Assembly (NCBI RefSeq): GCF_055900595.2
Contig: NZ_CM148325.1
Strand: one strand, 5' to 3'
DNA length: 64,000 nucleotides
Numbering within the stretch: the first letter of the stretch is position 1; each line of letters opens with the position of its first letter. The position numbers were made by a program, and so were the translations under genes. Of the stretch, positions 1-43,097 are shown piece after piece. The notes beneath the pieces were generated by a model. The model was not told the origin of the DNA and did no database searches. It saw nothing but the letters and a program-made list of their open reading frames with translations.

Positions 1-1
1 A

Positions 2-649
2 GTCCTCGGATTTTTTGGCCTGGTGGGGGCCGGGCGTTCCGATGTGATGAAGGCGCTATTTGGCCTCGTTTCGTATCACGGGACTGTGTTGATTGATGGT
101 AAGGAAGTCAGGATCGCTAATCCCAAACAGGCTATTGATCATGGCATTGCTTTTGTGACCGAAAACCGCAAGGAAGAAGGGTTAGTGCTGATGCACGACG
201 TCAATATGAACACGCACCATGTGGCGTTTCAATATAACGCTTCGCGGATGGGACTCATCAATCACCGACAAGAAGAGGCGAAGACGCTGCAATCTATTGC
301 CAGAATGAACACTAAAGTGAGTTCTGTACATCAGGCAGTGGGAGCGCTGAGCGGCGGTAATCAACAGAAAATCGTGTTATCCAAGTGGCTGGAGAAAACT
401 CCGCGTATTTTATTGCTCGATGAGCCAACGCGCGGAGTGGATGTCGGCGCAAAATTTGAAATCTATAACGTGATACGTCAACTGGCTGCGGCAGGGACAG
501 CAATTATTCTGGTGTCCTCTGAACTGCCAGAGGTCATGGCACTTAGCGATCGTCTGGTGGTAATGCGTAATAAAACGATTGCCGATATTTATTCATGTGA
601 AAATTTAACGCAGACACAGGTAATGACCGCTGCAACAGGAGTACGTTAA
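2..649 (+). CDS. Sugar ABC transporter ATP-binding protein, C-terminal (second) nucleotide-binding domain; 5' end lies upstream of the window
   Basis: The frame stays open back to position 2, giving ...GLVGAGRSD (Walker A-like). ABC signature LSGGNQQK and Walker B ILLLDEPTRGVD are present. Resembles the second domain of RbsA/MglA-type sugar ATPases. Confidence 0.8.
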   Translation, partial: VLGFFGLVGAGRSDVMKALFGLVSYHGTVLIDGKEVRIANPKQAIDHGIAFVTENRKEEGLVLMHDVNMNTHHVAFQYNASRMGLINHRQEEAKTLQSIARMNTKVSSVHQAVGALSGGNQQKIVLSKWLEKTPRILLLDEPTRGVDVGAKFEIYNVIRQLAAAGTAIILVSSELPEVMALSDRLVVMRNKTIADIYSCENLTQTQVMTAATGVR

Positions 650-1639
650 ATGACAGAGAAAACTCTTGCCAGTCCGAAACCTTCGGAAATTCCCATTGCA
701 AATAATTTTAAAAAAGTCTTCAGGCAATATGGCGGTATCCTCAGTGGAATGGTGGTGTTAATCATTCTGTTCAGTCTTATTAATGACAGTTTTTTTACTG
801 CCAATAACATTACTAATATTATTCTTCAGGTTTCGATAATTGCAATTACCGCCTATGGAATGACTTATGTACTTTTGCTTGGCGATATTGATTTATCAGT
901 CGGTTCAACCATTGCATTGATTGGCACATTTGCTGCGCTTGGGGCTTCATGGGGAATTCCATTTATTTTATTGGTCCCATTATCCATTATTGCAGCCCTG
1001 GCTCTGGGGATGATAAATGGTGGCTTGACGGCTATAGCGGGTATCCCTTCGTTTATTGTCACCGTTGCTACAATGGGGATCTTCCGTGGTATCGCTTATA
1101 TAGTGACCGATGGTATGCCCATCATGATTAAAGATGATGCCTTTCTGGCGCTGGGGAATGGAGAATTTCTCTATATACCTATTCCTATCTGGATATTAAT
1201 CATCTTATTGCTGATTAACCACTTCATTCTTACTAAAACAACCTTTGGACGAAAAATTTATATCACTGGTGGTAATAAAGAAGCGGCAGTTTATTCAGGG
1301 ATAAATGTCACCCGCTTGAAAATTAAAGTCTTTATGATTACTGCAGTGCTGGCAGGTATCAGCGGGATGATCCTCGCCTCACGCCTCTATTCCGGGCAAC
1401 CGAATTCCGCGTTGAGCTACGAACTGGATGCTATTGCCGCGGCTGTACTGGGAGGCACCAGCCTGAACGGCGGCTATGGAACGGTGGTGGGGACGGTAAT
1501 CGGGGCATTAACCATCGGCGTTATTAATAATGGCATGAACTTAATGAACGTTCCCTATTTCTATCAGATGGTGGTTAAAGGATTAGTCATTCTTGTAGCC
1601 GTTTATTTTGACGTAAGAAATAAAAGAAAACGTAGCTAA
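650..1639 (+). CDS. Sugar ABC transporter permease (RbsC-like, multi-pass membrane protein)
   Basis: 329-aa hydrophobic protein with multiple predicted transmembrane segments. Its ATG follows the upstream stop directly (TAA-ATG), with AGGAG about 10 nt upstream. The sequence is visibly AT-rich. Confidence 0.8.
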   Translation: MTEKTLASPKPSEIPIANNFKKVFRQYGGILSGMVVLIILFSLINDSFFTANNITNIILQVSIIAITAYGMTYVLLLGDIDLSVGSTIALIGTFAALGASWGIPFILLVPLSIIAALALGMINGGLTAIAGIPSFIVTVATMGIFRGIAYIVTDGMPIMIKDDAFLALGNGEFLYIPIPIWILIILLLINHFILTKTTFGRKIYITGGNKEAAVYSGINVTRLKIKVFMITAVLAGISGMILASRLYSGQPNSALSYELDAIAAAVLGGTSLNGGYGTVVGTVIGALTIGVINNGMNLMNVPYFYQMVVKGLVILVAVYFDVRNKRKRS

Positions 1640-1660
1640 TCATTTCAAGGAATTAATTAT

Positions 1661-2623
1661 ATGAGTAAGGTCTTCACAATTGGAGAAATTCTGGTTGAAA
1701 TTATGGCGAGTAAAATCGGCCAGCCATTTGATCAACCAGGTATCTGGAACGGCCCTTATCCCAGTGGTGCGCCCGCTATTTTTATCGACCAGGTGACACG
1801 TCTTGGTGTTCCGTGCGGCATCATTAGCTGTGTGGGGAATGATGGCTTTGGTGATATTAATATACATCGTCTGGCTGCTGATGGTGTGGATATCAGGGGG
1901 ATTTCAGTCTTACCTCTGGAAGCCACCGGGAGTGCCTTTGTTACTTATCATAACTCTGGCGATCGCGATTTTATTTTTAATATCAAGAATGCCGCTTGCG
2001 GTAAATTATCGGCGCAGCATGTTGATGAAAATATACTGAAAGACTGTACCCATTTTCATATTATGGGCTCATCCCTGTTTTCATTTCATATGGTAGACGC
2101 AGTAAAAAAAGCAGTAACCATCGTTAAAGCAAATGGTGGCGTTATTTCTTTCGACCCGAATATTCGTAAAGAGATGCTCGATATTCCAGAAATGCGTGAC
2201 GCCCTCCACTTTGTTCTTGAGTTAACAGATATCTATATGCCCAGCGAGGGAGAAGTGTTGCTCTTGTCGCCACACTCGACACCGGAGCGTGCAATCGCTG
2301 GTTTTCTTGAAGAAGGTGTTAAAGAGGTGATTGTGAAGCGCGGCAATCAAGGTGCCAGTTACTACTCCGCGAATGAGCAGTTTCATGTTGAGAGCTATCC
2401 GGTGGAAGAAGTTGACCCGACCGGTGCGGGAGACTGCTTTGGTGGCGCGTGGATTGCCTGCCGCCAGCTAGGGTTTGACGCCCATCGGGCATTACAATAT
2501 GCCAACGCCTGCGGTGCACTGGCGGTAACCCGACGTGGCCCAATGGAGGGAACGTCTCGCCTTGCGGAAATCGAAGCGTTCATCCAGCGCCATGACATGT
2601 CCATTCGGGAAGCAGCACAATGA
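1661..2623 (+). CDS. PfkB-family carbohydrate kinase (ribokinase/fructokinase/KdgK-like)
   Basis: 320 aa with an N-terminal FTIGEILVEI glycine-rich region and a C-terminal DPTGAGDCFGGAW anion-hole motif typical of PfkB kinases. A ribosome-binding site precedes the ATG. Confidence 0.8.
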   Translation: MSKVFTIGEILVEIMASKIGQPFDQPGIWNGPYPSGAPAIFIDQVTRLGVPCGIISCVGNDGFGDINIHRLAADGVDIRGISVLPLEATGSAFVTYHNSGDRDFIFNIKNAACGKLSAQHVDENILKDCTHFHIMGSSLFSFHMVDAVKKAVTIVKANGGVISFDPNIRKEMLDIPEMRDALHFVLELTDIYMPSEGEVLLLSPHSTPERAIAGFLEEGVKEVIVKRGNQGASYYSANEQFHVESYPVEEVDPTGAGDCFGGAWIACRQLGFDAHRALQYANACGALAVTRRGPMEGTSRLAEIEAFIQRHDMSIREAAQ

Positions 2624-3666
2624 AAAACGAAATTTGGTCGTGGATTGGCGATCTCTCGCAGGTTGCCGGAATTAAACACTATGAGTTACGCAGTGGCAGA
2701 TCAAAGGGGACAGAAGCGTTTGATGTCCGTACTGGTGCGGGATTGGCATTTACGGTGGTAAAAGATCGCGCGCTGGATATTGCATGGGCCAGCTACAAGG
2801 ACACTGCGCTCTCTTTTATCACCCCCAACGGCATTGTCGCCCCCGCTTTTTTTGAGTCTCAGGGCAACGGGTTTTTACGTAGCTTCTACGCGGGGTTACT
2901 GACTACCTGCGGACTTAGCTACATTGGCACGCCCTGTGAGGATAACGGAGAAACGCTGGGGTTACACGGGCGTTTGGCTGCGACTCCAGCAGAAGAGGTG
3001 GGGTATCGCACAGAACGGACCGACGACGGCATTGAATTTGTCATCAATGGCAAAGTACGGGAAACACGATTGTTCGGTGAAAATCTGACGCTGGAAAGGA
3101 CCATTCGCTGCCGTTATGGCGAAAATGTGCTGCGCATTGAAGACAAGGTGACTAATCATGGTTTCACCCGCCAGCCGCTGCAAATTCTTTATCACTTTAA
3201 TTACGGCTGGCCTTTATTATCGCCACAGGCAGAAATCTTGCTGTCGGCTAAAAGCGTAACGCCACGAACCCCGCATGCGGCGGAAGGGTTAACCAGTCAT
3301 CTGGAGATTTGTACCCCACAGCCCAGTTTTGACGAGCAGGTTTACTATCTCACGTTGAATAGCGACAGTCAGGGGATGAGTAAAGTTGCGCTGGTGAACG
3401 CCGAACTGGGGTGGGGAATTTACGAGAAATTCGACACCATGCAGCTACCCAACTTTATCCAGTGGAAAAATTTAGGCGCGGGTGAATATGTTATGGGGCT
3501 GGAGGTCAGCAATAGTTTTCCTGACGGTCGTGATAAAGAACGAGCGCAGGGGCGTCTGCCCTTTATAGAGCCAGGGGAAACAAAGACATACTGCTTTGAG
3601 CTGGGAATTGTTGATGGCGATGCTGAAATTAGCGCGTTGAAAGCGGAAATTGCAAGCTACCGTTAG
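2620..3666 (+). CDS. Aldose-1-epimerase-like (DUF4432-type) protein, function unknown
   Basis: 348-aa ORF whose start overlaps the kinase stop (ATGA), suggesting translational coupling. It is soluble-looking; family assignment is from overall resemblance only. Confidence 0.6.
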   Translation: MKNEIWSWIGDLSQVAGIKHYELRSGRSKGTEAFDVRTGAGLAFTVVKDRALDIAWASYKDTALSFITPNGIVAPAFFESQGNGFLRSFYAGLLTTCGLSYIGTPCEDNGETLGLHGRLAATPAEEVGYRTERTDDGIEFVINGKVRETRLFGENLTLERTIRCRYGENVLRIEDKVTNHGFTRQPLQILYHFNYGWPLLSPQAEILLSAKSVTPRTPHAAEGLTSHLEICTPQPSFDEQVYYLTLNSDSQGMSKVALVNAELGWGIYEKFDTMQLPNFIQWKNLGAGEYVMGLEVSNSFPDGRDKERAQGRLPFIEPGETKTYCFELGIVDGDAEISALKAEIASYR

Positions 3667-3681
3667 CTAACGGCAATAAAA

Positions 3682-3710
3682 ACGCCGGGCAGCGTTAACA
3701 GGCCCGGCGT
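3682..3710. terminator. Hairpin between the converging sugar operon (+) and accC (-); likely rho-independent terminator for accC
   Basis: Stem ACGCCGGGC / GCCCGGCGT with an 11-nt loop. An A-run on the + strand (T-run on the - strand) abuts the stem. Confidence 0.6.
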
Positions 3711-3757
3711 TGATTACGTTCTTTGCTAAGCGCGATGAAAACACCGCGCGTCACAAA

Positions 3758-5107
3758 TTATTTTTCCTGAAGACCGAGTTTTTTCTCCAGATAGTGGATG
3801 TTAGTGCCACCATGCTGGAAGTTCTCGTCATTCATGATGCGGATCTGCAGATCAACGTTGGTTTTGATACCGTCGATGATCAGCTCCTGCAGCGCATTCT
3901 TCATGCGGGCAATCGCCACGTCACGGTTTTCACCGTAGCAAATCAGCTTACCGATCATTGAGTCATAGTACGGCGGTACGGTGTAGCCCGCGTAGATATG
4001 AGACTCCCAACGCACGCCAAAACCGCCAGGTGCATGGAAACGGGTGATTTTGCCCGGGCTTGGCAGGAAGGTGTTAGGATCCTCGGCGTTAATACGGCAT
4101 TCCACCGCATGGCCGCGAACGTGAACTTCTTCTTGCTTGATCGACAGCGGCTGACCAGCAGCAATACGCAGTTGTTCTTTGATCAGGTCAACACCGGTGA
4201 TCATTTCAGTAACCGGGTGTTCTACCTGAATACGGGTGTTCATTTCGATGAAATAGAACTCGCCGTTTTCGAACAGAAACTCGAAAGTACCTGCACCGCG
4301 ATAGCCGATATCAACACACGCTTTAGCACAACGTTCACCGATGTAGCGACGCAGTTCCGGGGTAATGCCCGGTGCTGGCGCTTCTTCGACCACTTTCTGG
4401 TGACGACGCTGCATAGAGCAGTCACGTTCCGCCAGATAGATAGCGTTGCCCTGACCGTCCGCCAGTACCTGGATCTCGACGTGGCGAGGATTTTCCAGGT
4501 ATTTCTCCATGTAAACCATGTCGTTATTGAAAGCGGCTTTCGCTTCCGCACGGGTCATGGAGATGGATTGCGCCAGTTCAGCGTCGCCGCGTACTACACG
4601 CATACCACGACCGCCGCCGCCGCCGGAGGCTTTGATAATCACCGGGTAACCAATGCGTTTTGCAATGGCGCGGTTTTTATCCATATCGTCGCCCAGCGGG
4701 CCGTCAGAACCTGGTACGCAAGGAACGCCCGCTTTTTTCATCGCCGCGATTGCTGATACTTTATCGCCCATCAGGCGAATGGTTTCGGCTTTCGGGCCGA
4801 TGAAGATAAAGCCGGAGCGTTCAACCTGCTCGGCAAAATTGGCGTTCTCGGAGAGGAAGCCGTAACCCGGATGGATTGCTACTGCGCCGGTGATTTCAGC
4901 GGCGCTGATGATTGCCGGGATGTTCAGATAACTTTTTACTGACGGAGCAGGGCCGATACAGACCGTTTCGTCTGCCAGTAATACGTGTTTTAGATCGCGA
5001 TCCGCACTGGAGTGCACAGCGACAGTCTTGATGCCCAGTTCTTTACAGGCACGAAGAATACGCAATGCAATCTCGCCGCGGTTGGCAATAACAATTTTAT
5101 CCAGCAT
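3758..5107 (-). CDS. accC: Biotin carboxylase subunit of acetyl-CoA carboxylase
   Basis: Translation from [33 protein letters not shown]... gives 449 aa, matching E. coli AccC. The six-frame ORF extends 13 codons further upstream, which I treat as an artefact. Confidence 0.97.
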
Positions 5108-5117
5108 GTTCGCCTCG

Positions 5118-5588
5118 TTACTCGATGACGACCAGCGGCTCGTCAAATTCTACCGGTTGTCCACTTTCGACCAGAATTGCTTTCACGGTACCGGATTTGT
5201 CCGCTTCGATCTGGTTCATCATTTTCATGGCTTCAACGATGCACAGGGTATCGCCCACGTTGACTTTCTGACCCACTTCGATGAACGCTTTTGCGTCCGG
5301 GCTTGGGGTGCGGTAGAAAGTACCAACCATCGGGGAACGTACGATGTGACCACTGATTTCCGCTGCTGCTGGCGCTTCCATGGAAGGAACGGTCGCCGGA
5401 GCGGCTGCGTTAGATTGAGCTGGCTGCTGCATCATTGGTGCAGCGTAAGCTTGTTGCATCACAGGGAAACTTGCGGCAGGAGCTGCACGGCTGATGCGTA
5501 CTGACTCTTCGCCTTCGGAGATTTCCAGTTCGGAGATGCCTGATTCTTCAACCAGCTCGATCAGTTTTTTAATCTTACGAATATCCAT
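5118..5588 (-). CDS. accB: Biotin carboxyl carrier protein
   Basis: 156 aa starting [28 protein letters not shown]..., with the biotinylation motif [10 protein letters not shown]. It sits immediately upstream of accC. Confidence 0.97.
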
Positions 5589-6363
5589 GAGTGGGTTCCG
5601 TACTCTTTGTTTAGTGTGATTGTGACAGGCGTTTCACCGCCGTCTGTAAAGCGTATGCCCCGACAGCTGTATGCATAGCGATAAATTCCAGCAGGCCGGG
5701 ACGCCGGTCTATTTTGCCCCAGAGTGTCAATGTTTAGACTTGACGGACATTGTGCAGCGATCTGCTGCTATCCTCCGGCAAAAAACAAAATATACCTTCG
5801 TTGCGCCAATGTCACCTTTTCCGCAGCGCAAAAACTGCGTCAGGGAGGACGAGGTCGCACATTATAACGATTTCGTAGCAATTGGCAGCTAAATACTGGT
5901 CTTATCAGGGAAGATAATCAACAGCTAACATGTAAATAACCTTCAACACCGTGTAATTTGCAACAAGCCGCACAATTCACGAAATTAGCGCTATCGTCGA
6001 CGGAACTTCTTATAACGTAAGGCTAAAAGCTGTAAAGCCAGCTCTGCGAAGATGAGGGGCTGCAATGAGATGATCCTCACAGACCACAAATAATGTAGGG
6101 TTGCCAGGATCGCGACAAGATAGACGACATTACGCAGCGGTTGCTGGGGATTACTCAATTTTCACGGCATCGTCCGGATAGACGTCAATGCTAAAGCACG
6201 CAAAATCAACAAACTGACAATGCTCAGCATCAAATAGTTTTGAGTGGTTAATTTATAATCTAATAAAATCAGATTATTCACCCCTGGGATCAGAGTTAAG
6301 GTACAGATTAAGCGTAGCGTCACCCAGGCAAAGCGCCTTAAACCTAACAGACGACGGGACGTA

Positions 6364-6561
6364 TCAATAATGACTATTTAGTGGAGTATCAAGGGTGTTT
6401 TCCACCGTTTGGTGACCCGTATCAATGCGCATCAATTTATGGTCAGTCGAAATCATGACTTTCCAGTTTGGATTATGTTGTACAACTTTCTGACCAAGGT
6501 GTTCGACGAAAGCTGTCCGGCTAACCGCTTTTCCCGTTAATCGATGGAATAATGATTTCAA
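6364..6561 (-). CDS. Small hypothetical protein (65 aa)
   Basis: ORF with a GAGAGGG Shine-Dalgarno about 7 nt before the ATG, 36 bp downstream of acuI in AT-rich sequence. I do not recognise the protein. Confidence 0.35.
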   Translation of the reverse strand: MKSLFHRLTGKAVSRTAFVEHLGQKVVQHNPNWKVMISTDHKLMRIDTGHQTVENTLDTPLNSHY

Positions 6562-6597
6562 AATGAGTTCCCTCTCTTATTAATCCTTGCTAAATGG

Positions 6598-7572
6598 TTA
6601 ATTAATCTTCACCAGCGTGCGACCCTGGATCTGGTTATTAATGATGGCTTCGGCAAACTTTGGTGCTTCTGCCAGAGATATCTCTTTTGCTGCCTGGGTA
6701 TAGAATGATTCCGGTAAATCGGCGACCAGTCGCTGCCAGGCTTGTGCGCGGCGTGCTGGTGGCGTCATCACTGAATCCACCCCTTGTAAACGGACATTAC
6801 GCAGAATAAATGGCATGACCGTTGTTGGCAGAGTAAAACCACCCGCCAGACCACAAGCTGCCACGCAGCCTCCGTAATTCATTTGCGCCAGCACTTTCGC
6901 CAGCACTTTGTCGCCAACGGTGTCAATTGCCCCAGCCCAGAGTTGTTTTTCCAGAGGACGGGATTCGGCAAACTCATCGCGAGGGAGAATACGGCTGGCA
7001 CCTAAACTTTTCAGATATTCATGGGTACTTTCGCGACCGGAAACGGCAACGACCTGATAACCCAACTTATGCAGCAGCGCCACGGCGGTACTGCCGACGC
7101 CACCACTGGCACCCGTTACGACAATCTCGCCGTCCTGCGGGCGAACACCGGCATCTTCCAGCGCCATCACACACAGCATGGCGGTAAAACCGGCAGTACC
7201 GATAATCATTGCTTTACGCGCGTCCAGCCCTTGCGGCATGGCAACCAGCCAGTCACCTTTCACTCGCGCCTGCTCCGCCAGCCCACCCCAGTGGTTTTCA
7301 CCAACGCCCCAGCCAGTGAGTAATACGTCCTGACCGGCATGAAAACGCGGATCTTCGCTGGTGCGTACAGTTCCGGCAAAATCGATCCCAGGAATCATCG
7401 GAAAATTACGGATGATTTTTCCCTTACCGGTAATTGCCAGCGCATCTTTGTAGTTCAGGCTCGACCAGTGAACATCAACCGTGACATCGCCCTCCGGCAG
7501 GCGACTTTCGTCCAGAGTCTGTACCGATGCGAGAGTTTTGCCGTCCTGCTGTTCTAAAAGTAACGCCTGCAT
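6598..7572 (-). CDS. acuI: Acrylyl-CoA reductase AcuI (YhdH), MDR-family oxidoreductase
   Basis: 324 aa, MQALLLEQQDGKTLASVQTLDESRLPEGDV..., with a GASGGVG nucleotide-binding motif. Confidence 0.93.
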   Translation of the reverse strand: MQALLLEQQDGKTLASVQTLDESRLPEGDVTVDVHWSSLNYKDALAITGKGKIIRNFPMIPGIDFAGTVRTSEDPRFHAGQDVLLTGWGVGENHWGGLAEQARVKGDWLVAMPQGLDARKAMIIGTAGFTAMLCVMALEDAGVRPQDGEIVVTGASGGVGSTAVALLHKLGYQVVAVSGRESTHEYLKSLGASRILPRDEFAESRPLEKQLWAGAIDTVGDKVLAKVLAQMNYGGCVAACGLAGGFTLPTTVMPFILRNVRLQGVDSVMTPPARRAQAWQRLVADLPESFYTQAAKEISLAEAPKFAEAIINNQIQGRTLVKIN

Positions 7573-7723
7573 AAGTGGTCCTCATGTGCATGATGGATTG
7601 GAAAATAATTTCTGAAGACTATACTCGCTAATGGAAAAGCAAAGCCGATGAAGCGCAATAAATTGCGAGATAAATCTGATTTGCTAGTATGCCCGCTTCC
7701 TCACTATCGGAGTTAACACAAGG

Positions 7724-9664
7724 ATGAGATTAACGACGAAATTTTCGGCCTTTGTTACGCTGCTCACCGGGTTAACAATTTTTGTGACTTTGTTGGGCTG
7801 TTCGCTAAGTTTCTACAACGCCATTCAGTATAAGTTTAGTCATCGCGTTCAGGCGGTGGCGACGGCGATTGATACCCACCTTGTGTCGAATGACTTCAGC
7901 GCATTAAGGCCACAAATTACCGAATTAATGATGTCAGCAGATATCGTTCGTGTAGACCTGCTACATGGTGATAAACAGGTTTATACCCTCGCCAGAAATG
8001 GTAGTTATCGTCCGGTTGGCACCAGCGATCTGTTTCGCGAACTGAGCGTTCCGTTGATAAAGCATCCGGGGATGTCGCTGCGTCTGGTTTATCAGGATCC
8101 GATGGGCAACTATTTCCATTCGTTGATGACCACCGCGCCGCTCACGGGGGCGATTGGCTTTATCATTCTTATGCTCTTCCTGGCGGTACGCTGGTTACAA
8201 CGGCAACTTGCCGGGCAAGAATTGCTGGAAACCCGGGCTACTCGTATCTTAAACGGTGAGCGTGGCTCTAATGTGTTGGGAACCATCTATGAATGGCCGC
8301 CCAGAACCAGCAGTGCGCTGGATACGCTGCTTCGTGAAATTCAGAACGCACGCGAACAACACAGCCGTCTTGATACGCTGATCCGCTCTTATGCCGCCCA
8401 GGACATGAAAACCGGCCTCAATAACCGACTCTTCTTCGATAATCAGTTGGCAACGTTACTGGAAGATCAGGAGAAAGTAGGTACCCACGGGATCGTGATG
8501 ATGATTCGTCTACCGGATTTCAATATGTTGAGCGATACCTGGGGGCACAGCCAGGTTGAAGAACAGTTCTTCACTCTGACGAATCTGCTGTCGACATTTA
8601 TGATGCGCTACCCTGGCGCACTGCTGGCGCGTTACCACCGCAGTGATTTTGCTGCGCTGTTGCCGCACCGGACGTTAAAAGAGGCTGAGAGCATAGCCAG
8701 TCAGTTAATCAAAGCCGTCGATACCTTGCCGAACAATAAAATGCTCGATCGCGACGATATGATCCACATTGGTATCTGTGCCTGGCGTAGTGGTCAGGAT
8801 ACCGAGCAGGTAATGGAACATGCAGAGTCTGCCACGCGTAATGCGGGATTGCAGGGCGGCAATAGCTGGGCTATTTACGATGACTCGTTGCCTGAAAAAG
8901 GACGCGGTAATGTTCGCTGGCGTACGCTTATCGAGCAAATGCTCAGTCGCGGCGGCCCGCGCCTTTATCAAAAACCGGCGGTTACTCGCGAAGGTCAGGT
9001 TCATCATCGAGAACTCATGTGCCGCATCTTCGATGGTAATGAAGAGGTTAGCTCGGCGGAGTATATGCCGATGGTCTTGCAGTTTGGCTTATCGGAAGAG
9101 TATGACCGCCTGCAAATCAGCCGTCTGATTCCACTATTGCGTTACTGGCCGGAGGAAAATCTGGCGATTCAGGTTACCGTTGAGTCGCTGATTCGCCCGC
9201 GTTTTCAGCGTTGGCTGCGCGATACGTTAATGCAATGTGAAAGATCGCAACGAAAACGCATAATTATTGAACTTGCAGAGGCCGATGTAGGTCAACATAT
9301 CAGTCGTTTACAACCTGTTATTCGTTTAGTGAATGCTTTAGGGGTACGGGTAGCCGTCAACCAGGCTGGTTTGACGCTGGTAAGCACCAGTTGGATCAAA
9401 GAACTTAATGTTGAGTTACTCAAGCTCCATCCGGGGCTGGTCAGAAACATTGAGAAGCGAACGGAGAATCAGCTGCTGGTTCAAAGCCTGGTGGAAGCCT
9501 GCTCCGGGACCAGCACCCAGGTTTACGCCACCGGCGTGCGTTCGCGAAGCGAGTGGCAGACCCTGATTCAGCGCGGTGTTACAGGTGGGCAAGGGGATTT
9601 TTTCGCGTCCTCACAGCCACTTGATACTAACGTGAAAAAATATTCACAAAGATACTCGGTTTAA
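7724..9664 (+). CDS. csrD: CsrD, regulator of CsrB/CsrC sRNA decay (degenerate GGDEF-EAL protein)
   Basis: 646 aa with two N-terminal transmembrane segments. Length and position (divergent from acuI, upstream of mreB) match CsrD. Confidence 0.93.
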   Translation: MRLTTKFSAFVTLLTGLTIFVTLLGCSLSFYNAIQYKFSHRVQAVATAIDTHLVSNDFSALRPQITELMMSADIVRVDLLHGDKQVYTLARNGSYRPVGTSDLFRELSVPLIKHPGMSLRLVYQDPMGNYFHSLMTTAPLTGAIGFIILMLFLAVRWLQRQLAGQELLETRATRILNGERGSNVLGTIYEWPPRTSSALDTLLREIQNAREQHSRLDTLIRSYAAQDMKTGLNNRLFFDNQLATLLEDQEKVGTHGIVMMIRLPDFNMLSDTWGHSQVEEQFFTLTNLLSTFMMRYPGALLARYHRSDFAALLPHRTLKEAESIASQLIKAVDTLPNNKMLDRDDMIHIGICAWRSGQDTEQVMEHAESATRNAGLQGGNSWAIYDDSLPEKGRGNVRWRTLIEQMLSRGGPRLYQKPAVTREGQVHHRELMCRIFDGNEEVSSAEYMPMVLQFGLSEEYDRLQISRLIPLLRYWPEENLAIQVTVESLIRPRFQRWLRDTLMQCERSQRKRIIIELAEADVGQHISRLQPVIRLVNALGVRVAVNQAGLTLVSTSWIKELNVELLKLHPGLVRNIEKRTENQLLVQSLVEACSGTSTQVYATGVRSRSEWQTLIQRGVTGGQGDFFASSQPLDTNVKKYSQRYSV

Positions 9665-38535: not shown

Positions 38536-39429
38536 ATGGCAACGAATTTACGTGGCGTAATGGCCGCACTCCTGACTCCTTTTGATCAACAACAAGCACT
38601 GGATAAAGCGAGTCTGCGTCGCCTGGTTCAGTTCAATATTCAGCAGGGCATCGACGGTTTATACGTGGGTGGTTCTACCGGCGAAGCCTTTGTACAAAGC
38701 CTTTCCGAGCGTGAACAGGTACTGGAAATCGTCGCCGAAGAGGCGAAAGGCAAGATTAAACTCATCGCCCACGTCGGTTGCGTCAGCACTGCTGAAAGCC
38801 AACAACTTGCGGCATCGGCTAAACGTTATGGCTTCGATGCCGTCTCCGCTGTCACGCCGTTCTACTATCCTTTCAGCTTTGAAGAACACTGCGATCACTA
38901 TCGGGCAATTATTGATTCGGCGGATGGTTTGCCGATGGTGGTGTACAACATTCCGGCGTTAAGCGGCGTTAAACTGACCCTGGATCAGATTAACACTCTG
39001 GTTAAGTTGCCTGGTGTCGGCGCGCTGAAACAGACCTCTGGCGATCTCTATCAGATGGAGCAGATCCGTCGTGAACATCCGGATCTGGTGCTCTATAACG
39101 GTTACGACGAAATCTTTGCTTCTGGTTTGTTGGCGGGCGCTGATGGTGGTATCGGCAGTACTTACAACATCATGGGCTGGCGTTATCAGGGTATCGTGAA
39201 GGCGCTGAAAGAAGGCGATATCCAGACCGCGCAGAAGCTGCAAACCGAATGTAATAAAGTCATTGATTTACTGATCAAAACGGGCGTATTCCGCGGCCTG
39301 AAAACGGTCCTGCACTATATGGATGTCGTTTCTGTGCCGCTGTGCCGCAAACCGTTTGGTCCGGTCGATGAAAAATATCTGCCAGAACTGAAGGCGCTAG
39401 CCCAGCAGTTGATGCAAGAGCGCGGGTGA
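38536..39429 (+). CDS. nanA: N-acetylneuraminate lyase
   Basis: 297 aa from [52 protein letters not shown].... The six-frame ORF's extra 20 N-terminal codons run into the IS10 inside end. Confidence 0.96.

Positions 39430-41764: not shown

Positions 41765-43097
<1,333 letters not shown>

Follow-up and report, generated by a model that had tools for sequence, protein, structure and literature searches.

Described tagatose operons and ring-form enzymes

The accC/yhdT island of Escherichia coli Nissle carries the 'tag' operon (Ha et al. 2022, PMC9720028), and the name tagE for the Nissle copy of its last gene dates from 2025 (Microb Cell Fact, PMC12226905). Both papers (PMC9720028, PMC12226905) describe tagE as a putative aldose 1-epimerase and draw no link to DUF4432, DeoM or ring-form chemistry, which agrees with an earlier note made from the present DNA alone, where the gene was called the least characterised component of its locus. 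Deletion of the Nissle kinase orthologue abolishes growth on tagatose, tagatose induces tagE more than 40-fold, and dRNA-seq in E. coli Nissle detected one transcription start site, 5' of tagY, and none within the cluster. PfkA, which converts tagatose 6-phosphate (Tag-6-P) to the 1,6-bisphosphate, is essential to the pathway. Within E. coli, the operon is a marker of phylogroup B2/F, to which ExPEC, AIEC and the probiotic Nissle belong, and it enables growth on the sweetener D-tagatose, so that each of its steps is relevant to diet-microbiota questions and to the tagatose-inducible expression systems that now derive from the locus.

Homologous tagatose clusters of alpha- and betaproteobacteria lack tagE and have a Tag-6-P epimerase at its position, so a mutarotase is not universally needed for tagatose use. 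TagE of Sinorhizobium meliloti, a tagatose-6-phosphate 4-epimerase, shares its name with the E. coli protein and occupies the same post-kinase position in a homologous ABC/kinase cluster, but it is not homologous to E. coli TagE ('highly divergent', PMC9720028) and it has a different chemistry, forming Fru-6-P from Tag-6-P. Having one name for both proteins is a trap for annotation transfer.

Several other sugar operons encode proteins that act on ring forms. The E. coli deoQKPX operon comprises genes for a DeoR regulator, a ribokinase-type kinase, a permease and, in last place, a 337-aa DUF4432 protein (DeoX/DeoM). In work ascribed to Assairi et al. from 2004, Salmonella DeoM was reportedly a deoxyribose-specific mutarotase, and mutation of its His183 is said to have nearly inactivated the enzyme. 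RbsD (D-ribose pyranase) and FucU, which are likewise operon-encoded, turn an imported pyranose into the furanose required by a PfkB kinase; they are functional analogues of the role proposed here for TagE, although their fold and family are unrelated. The N-acetylneuraminate anomerase NanQ/YhcH is the product of a terminal sugar-operon gene and provides the enzyme that begins catabolism with the sugar in its reactive form (PMC8141875), but it has an unrelated metalloprotein fold and acts on a different sugar. Its gene, nanQ/yhcH (42633-43097), lies in the same window, that is, the whole 64,000-nt stretch of DNA analysed here.

The tag locus and the position of tagE

The locus at the start of the window is the already published E. 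coli D-tagatose operon tagYABCDE. Its last gene is the 348-aa DUF4432 ORF at 2620-3666 (plus strand), tagE, a known gene whose biochemistry is putative and whose product, with a galactose-mutarotase-like fold, is proposed below to be a D-tagatose mutarotase. Orthology with tagE of Nissle 1917 (HW372_RS02470 = ECOLIN_RS18670) is indicated by the same accC/yhdT island, the same gene order and a protein identity of 97% (337/348, 11 substitutions). The window opens partway through the gene for the ABC ATPase and so leaves out two and a half genes at the head of the operon. The operon is therefore entered in the 3' part of tagB (1-649, plus strand), a sugar ABC transporter ATP-binding gene cut by the window start, which measures 1500 bp in a complete copy of the locus and whose remnant matches, in NCBIfam, the C-terminal halves of xylose/ribose-type ATPases. 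It is followed on the plus strand by tagC (650-1639), an ABC transporter permease gene of the ribose/arabinose type named in PMC12226905, and by tagD (1661-2623), which encodes a PfkB-family D-tagatose kinase of 320 aa that scores 414 bits against the NCBIfam model TagKinase (NF049991), whose cut-off is 420.

The overlap with the kinase stop that the earlier note had read from the sequence is borne out: the tagE start codon (ATG, 2620-2622) overlaps the tagD stop codon (TGA, 2621-2623) in a plus-strand ATGA at 2620-2623, and the sequence across the junction reads ...CACAATGAAAA. A Shine-Dalgarno-like GGGAAG (2607-2612, plus strand) lies within the tagD coding sequence, 7 nt 5' of the tagE ATG. 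The kinase-then-DUF4432 adjacency recurs in Superficieibacter with the same ATGA overlap, and in Superficieibacter electus both the overlap and the GGGAAG motif are kept at identical spacing at a nucleotide identity of 74.5%. The Nissle annotation has the same kinase/tagE overlap (9992/9989 in its record).

The claim that tagE ends the operon likewise holds, given the hairpin and then the convergent accC found 3' of it. A perfect, GC-rich inverted repeat of 10 bp (3681-3711, strand unassigned) between the convergent tagE and accC genes folds into a hairpin with a dG of -25.8 kcal/mol (z -2.5). Read on the minus strand, it is the accC terminator, with a T-run behind it, and the same hairpin probably also ends the tag transcript. 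The terminator scan returned just a shorter minus-strand stem-loop (3696-3681, 6 pairs, with a T-run) and missed the 10-bp stem itself, and an Rfam search over positions 1-9000 gave no match. The convergent core gene accC (3758-5107, minus strand) forms the island edge, with boundaries as given in PMC9720028, and is a flank outside the system.

Among 5426 complete E. coli genomes, tagE is present in 1421 and the remaining operon in 1422. Comparison with Superficieibacter indicates purifying selection on tagE (pN 0.10, pS 0.76), with a pN/pS of 0.13 for tagE against 0.09 for the kinase and 0.08 for the permease, values that are uncorrected proportions because saturation of synonymous sites makes dN/dS not computable.

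Family, fold and catalytic residues

TagE matches Pfam DUF4432 (PF14486) with an E-value of 5.1e-104 and 347.8 bits over model positions 2-303/304 and query residues 29-329. DUF4432 is its sole Pfam match: PF01263 (Aldose_epim) gave none at E <= 10, and the Pfam search returned neither an RbsD_FucU domain, which places TagE outside the RbsD/FucU family, nor a nucleotide-binding, metal or aldolase-type domain. NCBIfam holds no family for TagE, and phmmer against the PDB matched 3TY1 alone. Neither by HMM nor by direct sequence similarity does TagE belong to the Aldose_epim family proper (GalM/YeaD/YphB/YihR). A full-text literature search found no characterisation of DUF4432 or DeoM.

The AlphaFold (AF2) model of TagE (pLDDT 93.7) adopts a predicted galactose-mutarotase beta-sandwich fold. 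Foldseek matches it to 3TY1 (TM 0.91, rmsd 1.7 A, 27% identity), the only solved DUF4432 structure, and also to GalM from B. subtilis, L. lactis and human and to the hexose-6-P mutarotase of yeast (E 1e-9 to 1e-13, TM 0.56-0.67); the yeast entries 2CIR/2CIQ match at E about 2e-9, and weaker matches include glycoside hydrolases and YidC. The beta-sandwich is thus shared with GalM/Aldose_epim proteins (PF01263; L. lactis 1L7K, B. subtilis 4BZE, E. coli GalM), in which equivalent His/His/Glu positions occur, whereas the identity between GalM and TagE is 10-16%, TagE has no PF01263 match and the known GalM substrates are aldoses.

Three candidate active-site residues, all encoded on the plus strand, stand out in the family profiles. 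His116 (codon 2965-2967, motif GLHGR) would be the first active-site His, His192 (codon 3193-3195, motif LYHFNYG) the proposed catalytic acid and Glu295 (codon 3502-3504, motif GLEVSN) the proposed catalytic base. H116, H192 and E295 are invariant among the 51 relatives of the close-homologue profile, and in a broad profile, composed of the close homologues together with DeoM-like, 3TY1-like and plasmid-borne distant members, both His residues remain invariant and the Glu is conserved in at least 90%. In the alignments, H116 falls on the 'iHG' in 3OS7, a mutarotase-like structure, and on His111 in DeoX/DeoM of E. coli. The counterparts of H192 are the YH in both 3OS7 and B. subtilis GalM, His175 in E. 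coli GalM and His183 in DeoX/DeoM, and those of E295 are the EP motif in both 3OS7 and B. subtilis GalM and Glu309 in E. coli GalM. On this alignment evidence, the catalytic His acid, the Glu base and a second active-site His all appear to be in place in TagE.

The link to GalM emerged only after the DeoM-like, 3TY1-like and plasmid-borne distant members had joined the profile. Against PDB sequences, the broad profile matched 3OS7 (E 6.6e-5) and B. subtilis GalM (E 0.013), and hhalign aligned it with E. coli GalM (E 0.019), placing H192 on H175 and E295 on E309. The close-homologue profile found nothing in E. coli GalM alone by hhalign and nothing beyond 3TY1 in the PDB by hmmsearch, and against four E. 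coli Aldose_epim paralogues its match was confined to a short stretch near the catalytic Glu and fell short of significance. When these four paralogues served as seeds for a database search, only close GalM orthologues came back, and no diverse profile resulted. Taken singly, the sequence links between TagE and GalM are weak (E 0.013-0.07). The earlier note had placed the protein only loosely in an aldose-1-epimerase-like/DUF4432 group and had pointed to profile searches, structure comparison and conserved His/Glu residues as ways to examine this. The placement is now firmer on all three counts, with DUF4432 matched (E 5e-104) and PF01263 not, the predicted model resembling galactose mutarotases (TM 0.56-0.67), and an invariant H116, H192 and E295 that align with GalM-type sites.

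DeoX/DeoM and other relatives of TagE

As judged by profile comparison, DeoX/DeoM is a distant member of DUF4432, a link that is new in this analysis. It matches Pfam DUF4432 at E 7e-7 and 4e-6, and hhalign of DeoX/DeoM against the TagE family gives a probability of 94.8% and E 5e-8, with YMCH(183)MNY over ILYH(192)FNY. A published Azospirillum gene named deoM also encodes a DUF4432 protein (E 4e-22) and is flanked by ABC transporter and ribokinase genes. Like TagE, DeoX/DeoM ends a small sugar operon with a PfkB kinase that acts on a terminal OH, and its His111 and His183 match H116 and H192 of TagE. The two differ in that they share only about 20% identity, that the deoQKPX transporter is FucP-like whereas that of the tag operon is of the ABC type, that deoX does not adjoin its kinase gene whereas tagE overlaps tagD, and that the sugar of DeoX/DeoM is an aldopentose whereas that proposed for TagE is a ketohexose. 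Moreover, the DeoX/DeoM residue at the Glu295 position is not Glu, and the catalytic Glu has no aligned counterpart in DeoM-like proteins. Assignment of tagE itself to a deoK/deoP operon was rejected, its neighbours being a tagatose kinase, an ABC transporter and a class II aldolase.

Relatives of TagE are found in many free-sugar catabolic clusters, often beside PfkB kinases, an association also new in this analysis. In a Clostridiales MAG, a DUF4432 gene follows a tagK-like kinase gene in a cluster with a class II aldolase, while other relatives lie after transporters and before a free-sugar dehydrogenase plus lactonase, isomerases or kinases, settings that point to unphosphorylated sugars as substrates. 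The contexts of relatives with 40-50% identity are of the mannoside/fructose, fucose-isomerase-like, dehydrogenase/lactonase and DHDPS types, and since these sugar clusters are very different, specificity is not transferable by homology. A context census placed PfkB kinases at no fewer than 14 of 80 loci and FGGY kinases at no fewer than 10 of 80, counts that are lower bounds and not frequencies, as the census used single-sequence phmmer queries for 35 neighbour types only and consequently left many loci with no recognised neighbour.

Proposed role of TagE and alternative explanations

TagE is probably a D-tagatose mutarotase, a reading put at roughly 60%, which would open the dominant pyranose and furnish TagD, a C6 kinase, with the furanose, in which O6 is free. 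Tagatose at equilibrium is mostly pyranose, in which O6 is the ring oxygen; because TagD phosphorylates O6, only the furanose or the open-chain form is usable by the kinase. A literature search for tagatose tautomer percentages found none. PfkB ketohexose 6-kinases take their substrate as the minor beta-furanose, as seen in the structure of V. cholerae fructokinase (PMC6240065). The gene, its place in the operon, the fold, the conserved residues, the published induction by tagatose and the homology to DeoX/DeoM are established; which sugar TagE acts on, how ring forms come into play and what the kinase gains are inferred as follows. Tagatose delivered by the ABC transporter would be acted upon, as free cytoplasmic D-tagatose, by TagE as a cofactor-independent mutarotase. 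Glu295 would take the proton of the anomeric OH and His192 would protonate the ring oxygen, as in the GalM-type pair, so that the hemiketal ring opens, while His116 would position the sugar. Faster pyranose/furanose and alpha/beta exchange could then free the kinase from limitation by spontaneous mutarotation, and the ATGA overlap may ensure that TagE is co-produced with the kinase. Spontaneous ring exchange of the ketose may, however, be fast enough to leave the benefit of TagE small. Control by TagE over which anomer or ring form of the sugar reaches the kinase, much as the earlier note had supposed, is the best-supported interpretation, whereas the truly 'epimeric' role that it had also allowed is unlikely for a mutarotase fold.

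The main alternatives are a Tag-6-P anomerase and a non-specific or dispensable mutarotase. TagE could have a broad or different specificity and be dispensable for tagatose growth, either as a hitch-hiker or in the service of another ABC-carried sugar. This seems rather unlikely: the varied sugar contexts of the 40-50%-identity relatives, the tagatose clusters that do without tagE and the slightly lower constraint on tagE than on the kinase and permease would fit it, but the gene is kept with the operon in essentially all of the ~1420 E. coli genomes, is co-transcribed and tagatose-induced, has a kinase overlap conserved across genera, and is echoed by the kinase-DUF4432 pair with a class II aldolase in the Clostridiales MAG. 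There is also only a small chance that TagE acts after the kinase, giving PfkA its accepted Tag-6-P anomer in the manner of YeaD/YMR099c with glucose 6-phosphate. The structural match to the yeast hexose-6-P mutarotase is consistent with such a function, as is the need for PfkA, a foreign and anomer-selective enzyme. R50, R160 and R304, invariant in the close subfamily, could bind phosphate, yet the same arginines are invariant in free-sugar clusters with no upstream kinase (ABC-DUF4432-SDR-lactonase) and are not conserved across the wider family. Furthermore, DeoM, said to be the sole characterised relative, reportedly acts on a free sugar, and Tag-6-P can form no pyranose, so that alpha/beta furanose exchange, which is fast, would be the only reaction left.

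Two further possibilities were rejected. That TagE is a true epimerase or isomerase, replacing the Tag-6-P 4-epimerase or making tagatose from another sugar, is very improbable, even though its annotation reads 'epimerase' and its gene sits at the position of S. meliloti tagE, as noted by Ha et al. (PMC9720028). The lack of any Pfam domain besides DUF4432 argues against a C4-epimerase, and the operon's own tagatose-bisphosphate aldolase and the need for PfkA fit a bisphosphate route. To our knowledge, the mutarotase fold is also restricted to ring opening at the anomeric centre. It is still harder to credit that TagE is a non-catalytic sugar binder (a sensor, chaperone or kinase partner) using the beta-sandwich as a carbohydrate-binding module. 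Glycoside hydrolases and YidC, both among the weaker fold matches, do contain mutarotase-like domains as modules without catalytic function, but TagE has the invariant His/His/Glu aligned with catalytic residues and is a stand-alone single-domain protein, as are GalM and DeoM.

Implications for the DUF4432 family

Should TagE indeed be a tagatose mutarotase, a 'domain of unknown function' family of some 3,000 clusters would gain a function and be tied to the forgotten DeoM result, and engineered strains would gain a simple handle on the kinetics of tagatose uptake and sensing. The scientific surprise would be small because the fold-based label 'aldose 1-epimerase family' already suggests as much. 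As a tentative extension that may well not hold, TagE could be the first ketohexose mutarotase, and DUF4432 members, including TagE, DeoM and the fructokinase-linked proteins of Bacteroidota and Firmicutes, could be 'pyranases', a non-homologous counterpart of RbsD. Such proteins would free a terminal OH locked as the pyranose ring oxygen and would thereby gate the entry of sugars both rare and common (tagatose, fructose, deoxyribose) into PfkB-kinase pathways.

The DUF4432 family comprises about 3,000 sequence clusters. Its solved member 3TY1, KPN_04629 of Klebsiella pneumoniae, is a structural-genomics 'putative aldose 1-epimerase' whose gene is not part of a tagatose operon and instead stands alone near the ytfQRT-yjfF galactofuranose transporter genes and fbp.

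The tag operon and its terminal gene

In the window, whose DNA is that of E. coli, csrD, yhdH/acuI, accB, and accC lie in reverse orientation, and a sugar operon situated upstream of accC converges on it, with its last three and a half genes inside the window. The final gene, tagE (2620-3666, plus strand), encodes a 348-aa protein, and its ATG overlaps the TGA of the 320-aa PfkB-family kinase ORF (tagD) in an ATGA (2620-2623, plus strand), with a GGGAAG motif 7 nt 5' of the start codon. Overlap and motif are both kept in Superficieibacter electus, where the gene is only 74.5% nucleotide-identical. Downstream, before the 3' end of accC, lies a perfect 10-bp GC-rich hairpin (3681-3711; dG -25.8 kcal/mol, z -2.5); because the T-run that follows it sits on the minus strand, it is above all the terminator of accC and plausibly acts bidirectionally. 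The sequence, together with this hairpin and the convergent accC, confirms every particular of the ORF in the earlier note, which had described it as overlapping the kinase and terminating the operon.

With 414 bits, the kinase falls just short of the 420-bit cut-off of the NCBIfam equivalog 'tagatose kinase'. In E. coli Nissle 1917, accC and yhdT are separated by an 8.5-kb island that is missing from K-12 and whose genes include a second kinase and a DeoR regulator in divergent orientation (Ha et al. 2022, iScience, PMC9720028). A genome that matches the window at 100% identity has the same eight genes around the ORF, and so does Nissle, whose product is 97% identical to the window TagE (337/348). 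Six island genes confer growth on D-tagatose, for which the kinase is essential and host PfkA is needed, and tagatose induces all six more than 40-fold (PMC9720028). The PfkA requirement indicates a route from tagatose through Tag-6-P and Tag-1,6-BP to trioses; the role of the epimerase-like gene, in the authors' words, 'warrants further investigation' (PMC9720028). A 2025 follow-up introduced the names tagY, A, B, C, D, and E and mapped a single start of transcription, which lies upstream of tagY, with none within the cluster (PMC12226905), so that the ORF is tagE, the last gene of a single transcript. Among 5426 complete E. coli genomes, tagE occurs in 1421 and the five upstream genes in 1422; tagE is therefore kept wherever the operon is.

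The gene, the operon, and the label 'putative aldose 1-epimerase' are already in the literature, and the finding is to this extent known; the present analysis contributes the placement in DUF4432, for which the active site is mapped, a connection to DeoX/DeoM, and a specific hypothesis on ring forms. None of this would surprise a specialist, and long-standing questions do not hinge on the biochemistry of TagE.

Several further observations concern the locus and its variants. Two divergent genes fall outside the window, past its start, at 3551-5348 of the identical genome (L001): tagR, for the DeoR regulator, and tagK, for the second PfkB kinase, whose reported identity to TagD is 51%. The G+C content is 0.472 in the tag segment (window 1-3666) versus 0.516 in the rest (3667-64000), with 0.507 for tagE alone, and the lower tag-segment value fits the proposal of Ha et al. 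that the island was acquired horizontally (PMC9720028). An NCBI E. coli protein record outside the window (P0017) has 493 aa, combines a PfkB with a DUF4432 domain, and shows 97% identity to TagE over the shared part; kinase and TagE were probably fused in one assembly by read-through or a frameshift at the ATGA junction. Several truncated TagE variants (P0011, P0012, and P0019) have many member sequences, and the plasmid-sized E. coli record NZ_CP173438.1 holds a 54-bp kinase/tagE junction fragment annotated under 'aldose 1-epimerase family protein'. In the tagE search, one copy was on a plasmid, and a single genome had two. An unrelated Sinorhizobium tagatose-6-phosphate 4-epimerase goes by the name tagE as well (PMC9720028), which invites wrong annotation transfer.

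Fold and putative active site of TagE

Pfam returned a single, near full-length DUF4432 match (E 5e-104), and no NCBIfam model matched TagE. The family comprises 3190 clusters at 50% identity with E <= 1e-3, and its only solved relative is 3TY1 (E 1e-32), a Klebsiella 'hypothetical aldose 1-epimerase' from structural genomics. An AlphaFold model built from 51 homologues (pLDDT 93.7, pTM 0.92) was compared with the PDB by Foldseek, which matched it to 3TY1 at TM 0.91 and to galactose mutarotases of B. subtilis, L. lactis, and human (E 1e-9 to 1e-13, TM 0.56-0.67), with yeast hexose-6-phosphate mutarotase within the same score range. In the 51-sequence alignment, H116 (GLHGR), H192 (LYHFNYG), and E295 (GLEVSN) are invariant. 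The loose placement in DUF4432 offered by the earlier note is thus borne out by the Pfam match, and the mutarotase-superfamily similarity, whose absence it had named as refuting, by the predicted structure; the conserved catalytic-type His and Glu residues it looked for are present.

Direct profile comparison of the TagE family with E. coli GalM gave no match, and comparison with four E. coli Aldose_epim paralogues was marginal. A DUF4432 profile broadened with distant members reached the galactose-mutarotase-like 3OS7 (E 6.6e-5) and B. subtilis GalM (E 0.013) in an hmmsearch of the PDB, with H116, H192, and E295 falling on the iHG, YH, and EP motifs of the former, and H192 and E295 on YH and EP of the latter. 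With hhalign against the E. coli paralogues, the same profile placed H192 on His175 and E295 on Glu309 of E. coli GalM (E 0.019), in GalM enzymology the acid protonating the ring oxygen and the base deprotonating the anomeric hydroxyl, respectively. Each sequence link is weak singly; in combination with the fold match and residue invariance, they make a GalM-type active site a reasonable reading.

A weak tblastn match of TagE among plasmid records fell in Azospirillum lipoferum 4B, on a gene that the genome paper names deoM, 'deoxyribose mutarotase'; an ABC transporter and a ribokinase flank this gene, deoC is close by, and its product matches DUF4432 at E 4e-22. Used as a query, it retrieved an E. 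coli record of classical deoQKPX layout, with a DeoR regulator, a ribokinase-type kinase, a FucP-like permease, and a 337-aa 'aldose 1-epimerase family / DUF4432' protein. The match of this DeoX/DeoM protein to DUF4432 is weak (E 7e-7 and 4e-6); it aligns to the TagE profile at 94.8% hhalign probability, its His111 and His183 falling on H116 and H192. The 337-residue Salmonella DeoM was reportedly shown by Assairi et al. in 2004 to be a deoxyribose-specific mutarotase, and mutation of its His183 reportedly nearly abolishes activity. The length and His183 position of the E. coli sequence match this account; if it is right, DUF4432 has one proven mutarotase, the catalytic His of which is conserved in TagE.

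Genomic context of DUF4432 relatives

Thirteen loci were viewed singly, and 80 more, from a scan of species-representative genomes, were annotated crudely with 35 reference neighbours. Every recognisable context belongs to carbohydrate catabolism, but the contexts are diverse. Superficieibacter carries the same tag island, and a Clostridiales MAG shows the order ABC, ROK, class II aldolase, tagK-like PfkB kinase, and DUF4432. A recurrent Bacteroidota cluster (MAG loci L035, L039, L041, L042, L047, L050, and L057) combines GH38/GH2 mannosidases, DUF4432, an MFS transporter, a lyxose/mannose-isomerase-like cupin, a PfkB kinase of ~390 aa, and a mannitol-dehydrogenase-like gene; its PfkB/isomerase-like/dehydrogenase-like core recurs in metagenome contigs L002, L018, and L020 at 49-56% identity. 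This cluster apparently encodes a route from mannosides through mannose and fructose to fructose-6-P, and its DUF4432 protein could act on mannose or fructose. Other arrangements are fucose-isomerase-like/DUF4432/class II aldolase/FGGY kinase, ABC/DUF4432/SDR/lactonase, Zn-ADH/SDR/DUF4432, and DHDPS-like/DUF4432. Because DUF4432 in several clusters directly follows a transporter and precedes a sugar dehydrogenase and lactonase, with a kinase absent upstream, we conclude from gene context that the substrates are free sugars. Sugar specificity differs among relatives at 40-50% identity, so that homology does not suffice to assign 'tagatose', for which the operon is the basis. A PfkB kinase, an enzyme that phosphorylates a terminal hydroxyl, is a recurring partner, found in at least 14 of the 80 loci with the 35 reference neighbours and, by contig look-up, near DUF4432 in four of eight metagenome or MAG homologues.

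In Klebsiella pneumoniae, the probable 3TY1 orthologue (6845-8053 of locus L007) is a solitary gene flanked by yjgA and a GNAT gene, with fbp and the galactofuranose ABC transporter ytfQRT-yjfF nearby, a setting compatible with a putative role in furanose/pyranose interconversion; the record, a 5.4-Mb 'plasmid' in PLSDB, is a chromosome under the wrong label. On pTiC58, a NUDIX hydrolase and a DUF4432 protein 29% identical to TagE (6624-7984 of locus L008) exemplify a pair found on nopaline-type Ti plasmids after an ABC transporter, a glycerophosphodiester phosphodiesterase, and an inositol-monophosphatase-family gene, which presumably resembles the agrocinopine (acc) operon. Of the 278 plasmid records in which a homologue occurs, 126 come from Agrobacterium, all plasmid types counted together.

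A proposed role in tagatose ring opening

Ketohexoses in water are mostly pyranoses, tagatose being predominantly the alpha-pyranose with minor furanoses, and the ring oxygen of a ketohexopyranose is O6. With O6 locked in this ring, a 6-kinase therefore needs the furanose or the open chain. Deoxyribose with DeoK (O5) and ribose with RbsK follow the same logic, the latter case being served in E. coli by the unrelated pyranase RbsD. The structure of the V. cholerae PfkB fructokinase bears out this need of a 6-kinase, for it is the minor beta-furanose that is bound (PMC6240065). Given this need of a 6-kinase and the logic shared with DeoK and RbsK/RbsD, we propose that TagE would open the hemiketal ring of tagatose by GalM-type acid/base catalysis and speed pyranose-to-furanose and anomer exchange, whereby the supply of substrate to TagD would keep pace with uptake; through the start/stop overlap, both proteins would be produced together. 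To the established gene, operon, fold, residues, homology, and induction, this proposal adds a substrate, a ring-form logic, and a physiological benefit that we infer, and we assign it as a whole a probability of about 0.6. Its extension, in which DUF4432 is a 'pyranase' family for PfkB kinases and TagE the first ketohexose mutarotase, is tentative and less likely than not.

The diversity of contexts among relatives, together with the existence of alpha- and beta-proteobacterial tagatose clusters that lack a tagE-type gene (PMC9720028), would suit a non-specific or dispensable mutarotase, yet strict co-retention with the operon, co-induction, and the conserved kinase/tagE overlap make this unlikely. 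TagE might instead act one step later, as a Tag-6-P anomerase feeding PfkA: hexose-6-P mutarotases share its fold, and three arginines are invariant within the close subfamily. These arginines, however, are likewise present in relatives that belong to non-phosphorylating pathways, and the wider family does not keep them, and we consider such a role quite unlikely. Both a true C4-epimerase or isomerase and a non-catalytic binding protein are highly improbable in view of the chemistry of the fold, the aldolase that the operon itself encodes, and the invariance of the catalytic residues.

Other features of the window

Like the proposed tag case, a second sugar operon in the same 64 kb closes with a supplier of a reactive sugar form: the nan operon, located by blastn against the Nissle annotation, includes nanA (38536-39429) and ends with nanQ/yhcH (42633-43097, plus strand), encoding N-acetylneuraminate anomerase. 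In the gap of ~1 kb between accB and yhdH/acuI, an Rfam search gave no match. The stretch at 5994-6379 (minus strand) within it is 89% identical to a Nissle segment annotated as a partial pseudogene of a YedZ/MsrQ-like sulfoxide reductase heme-binding subunit, which explains why the gap is otherwise free of genes.
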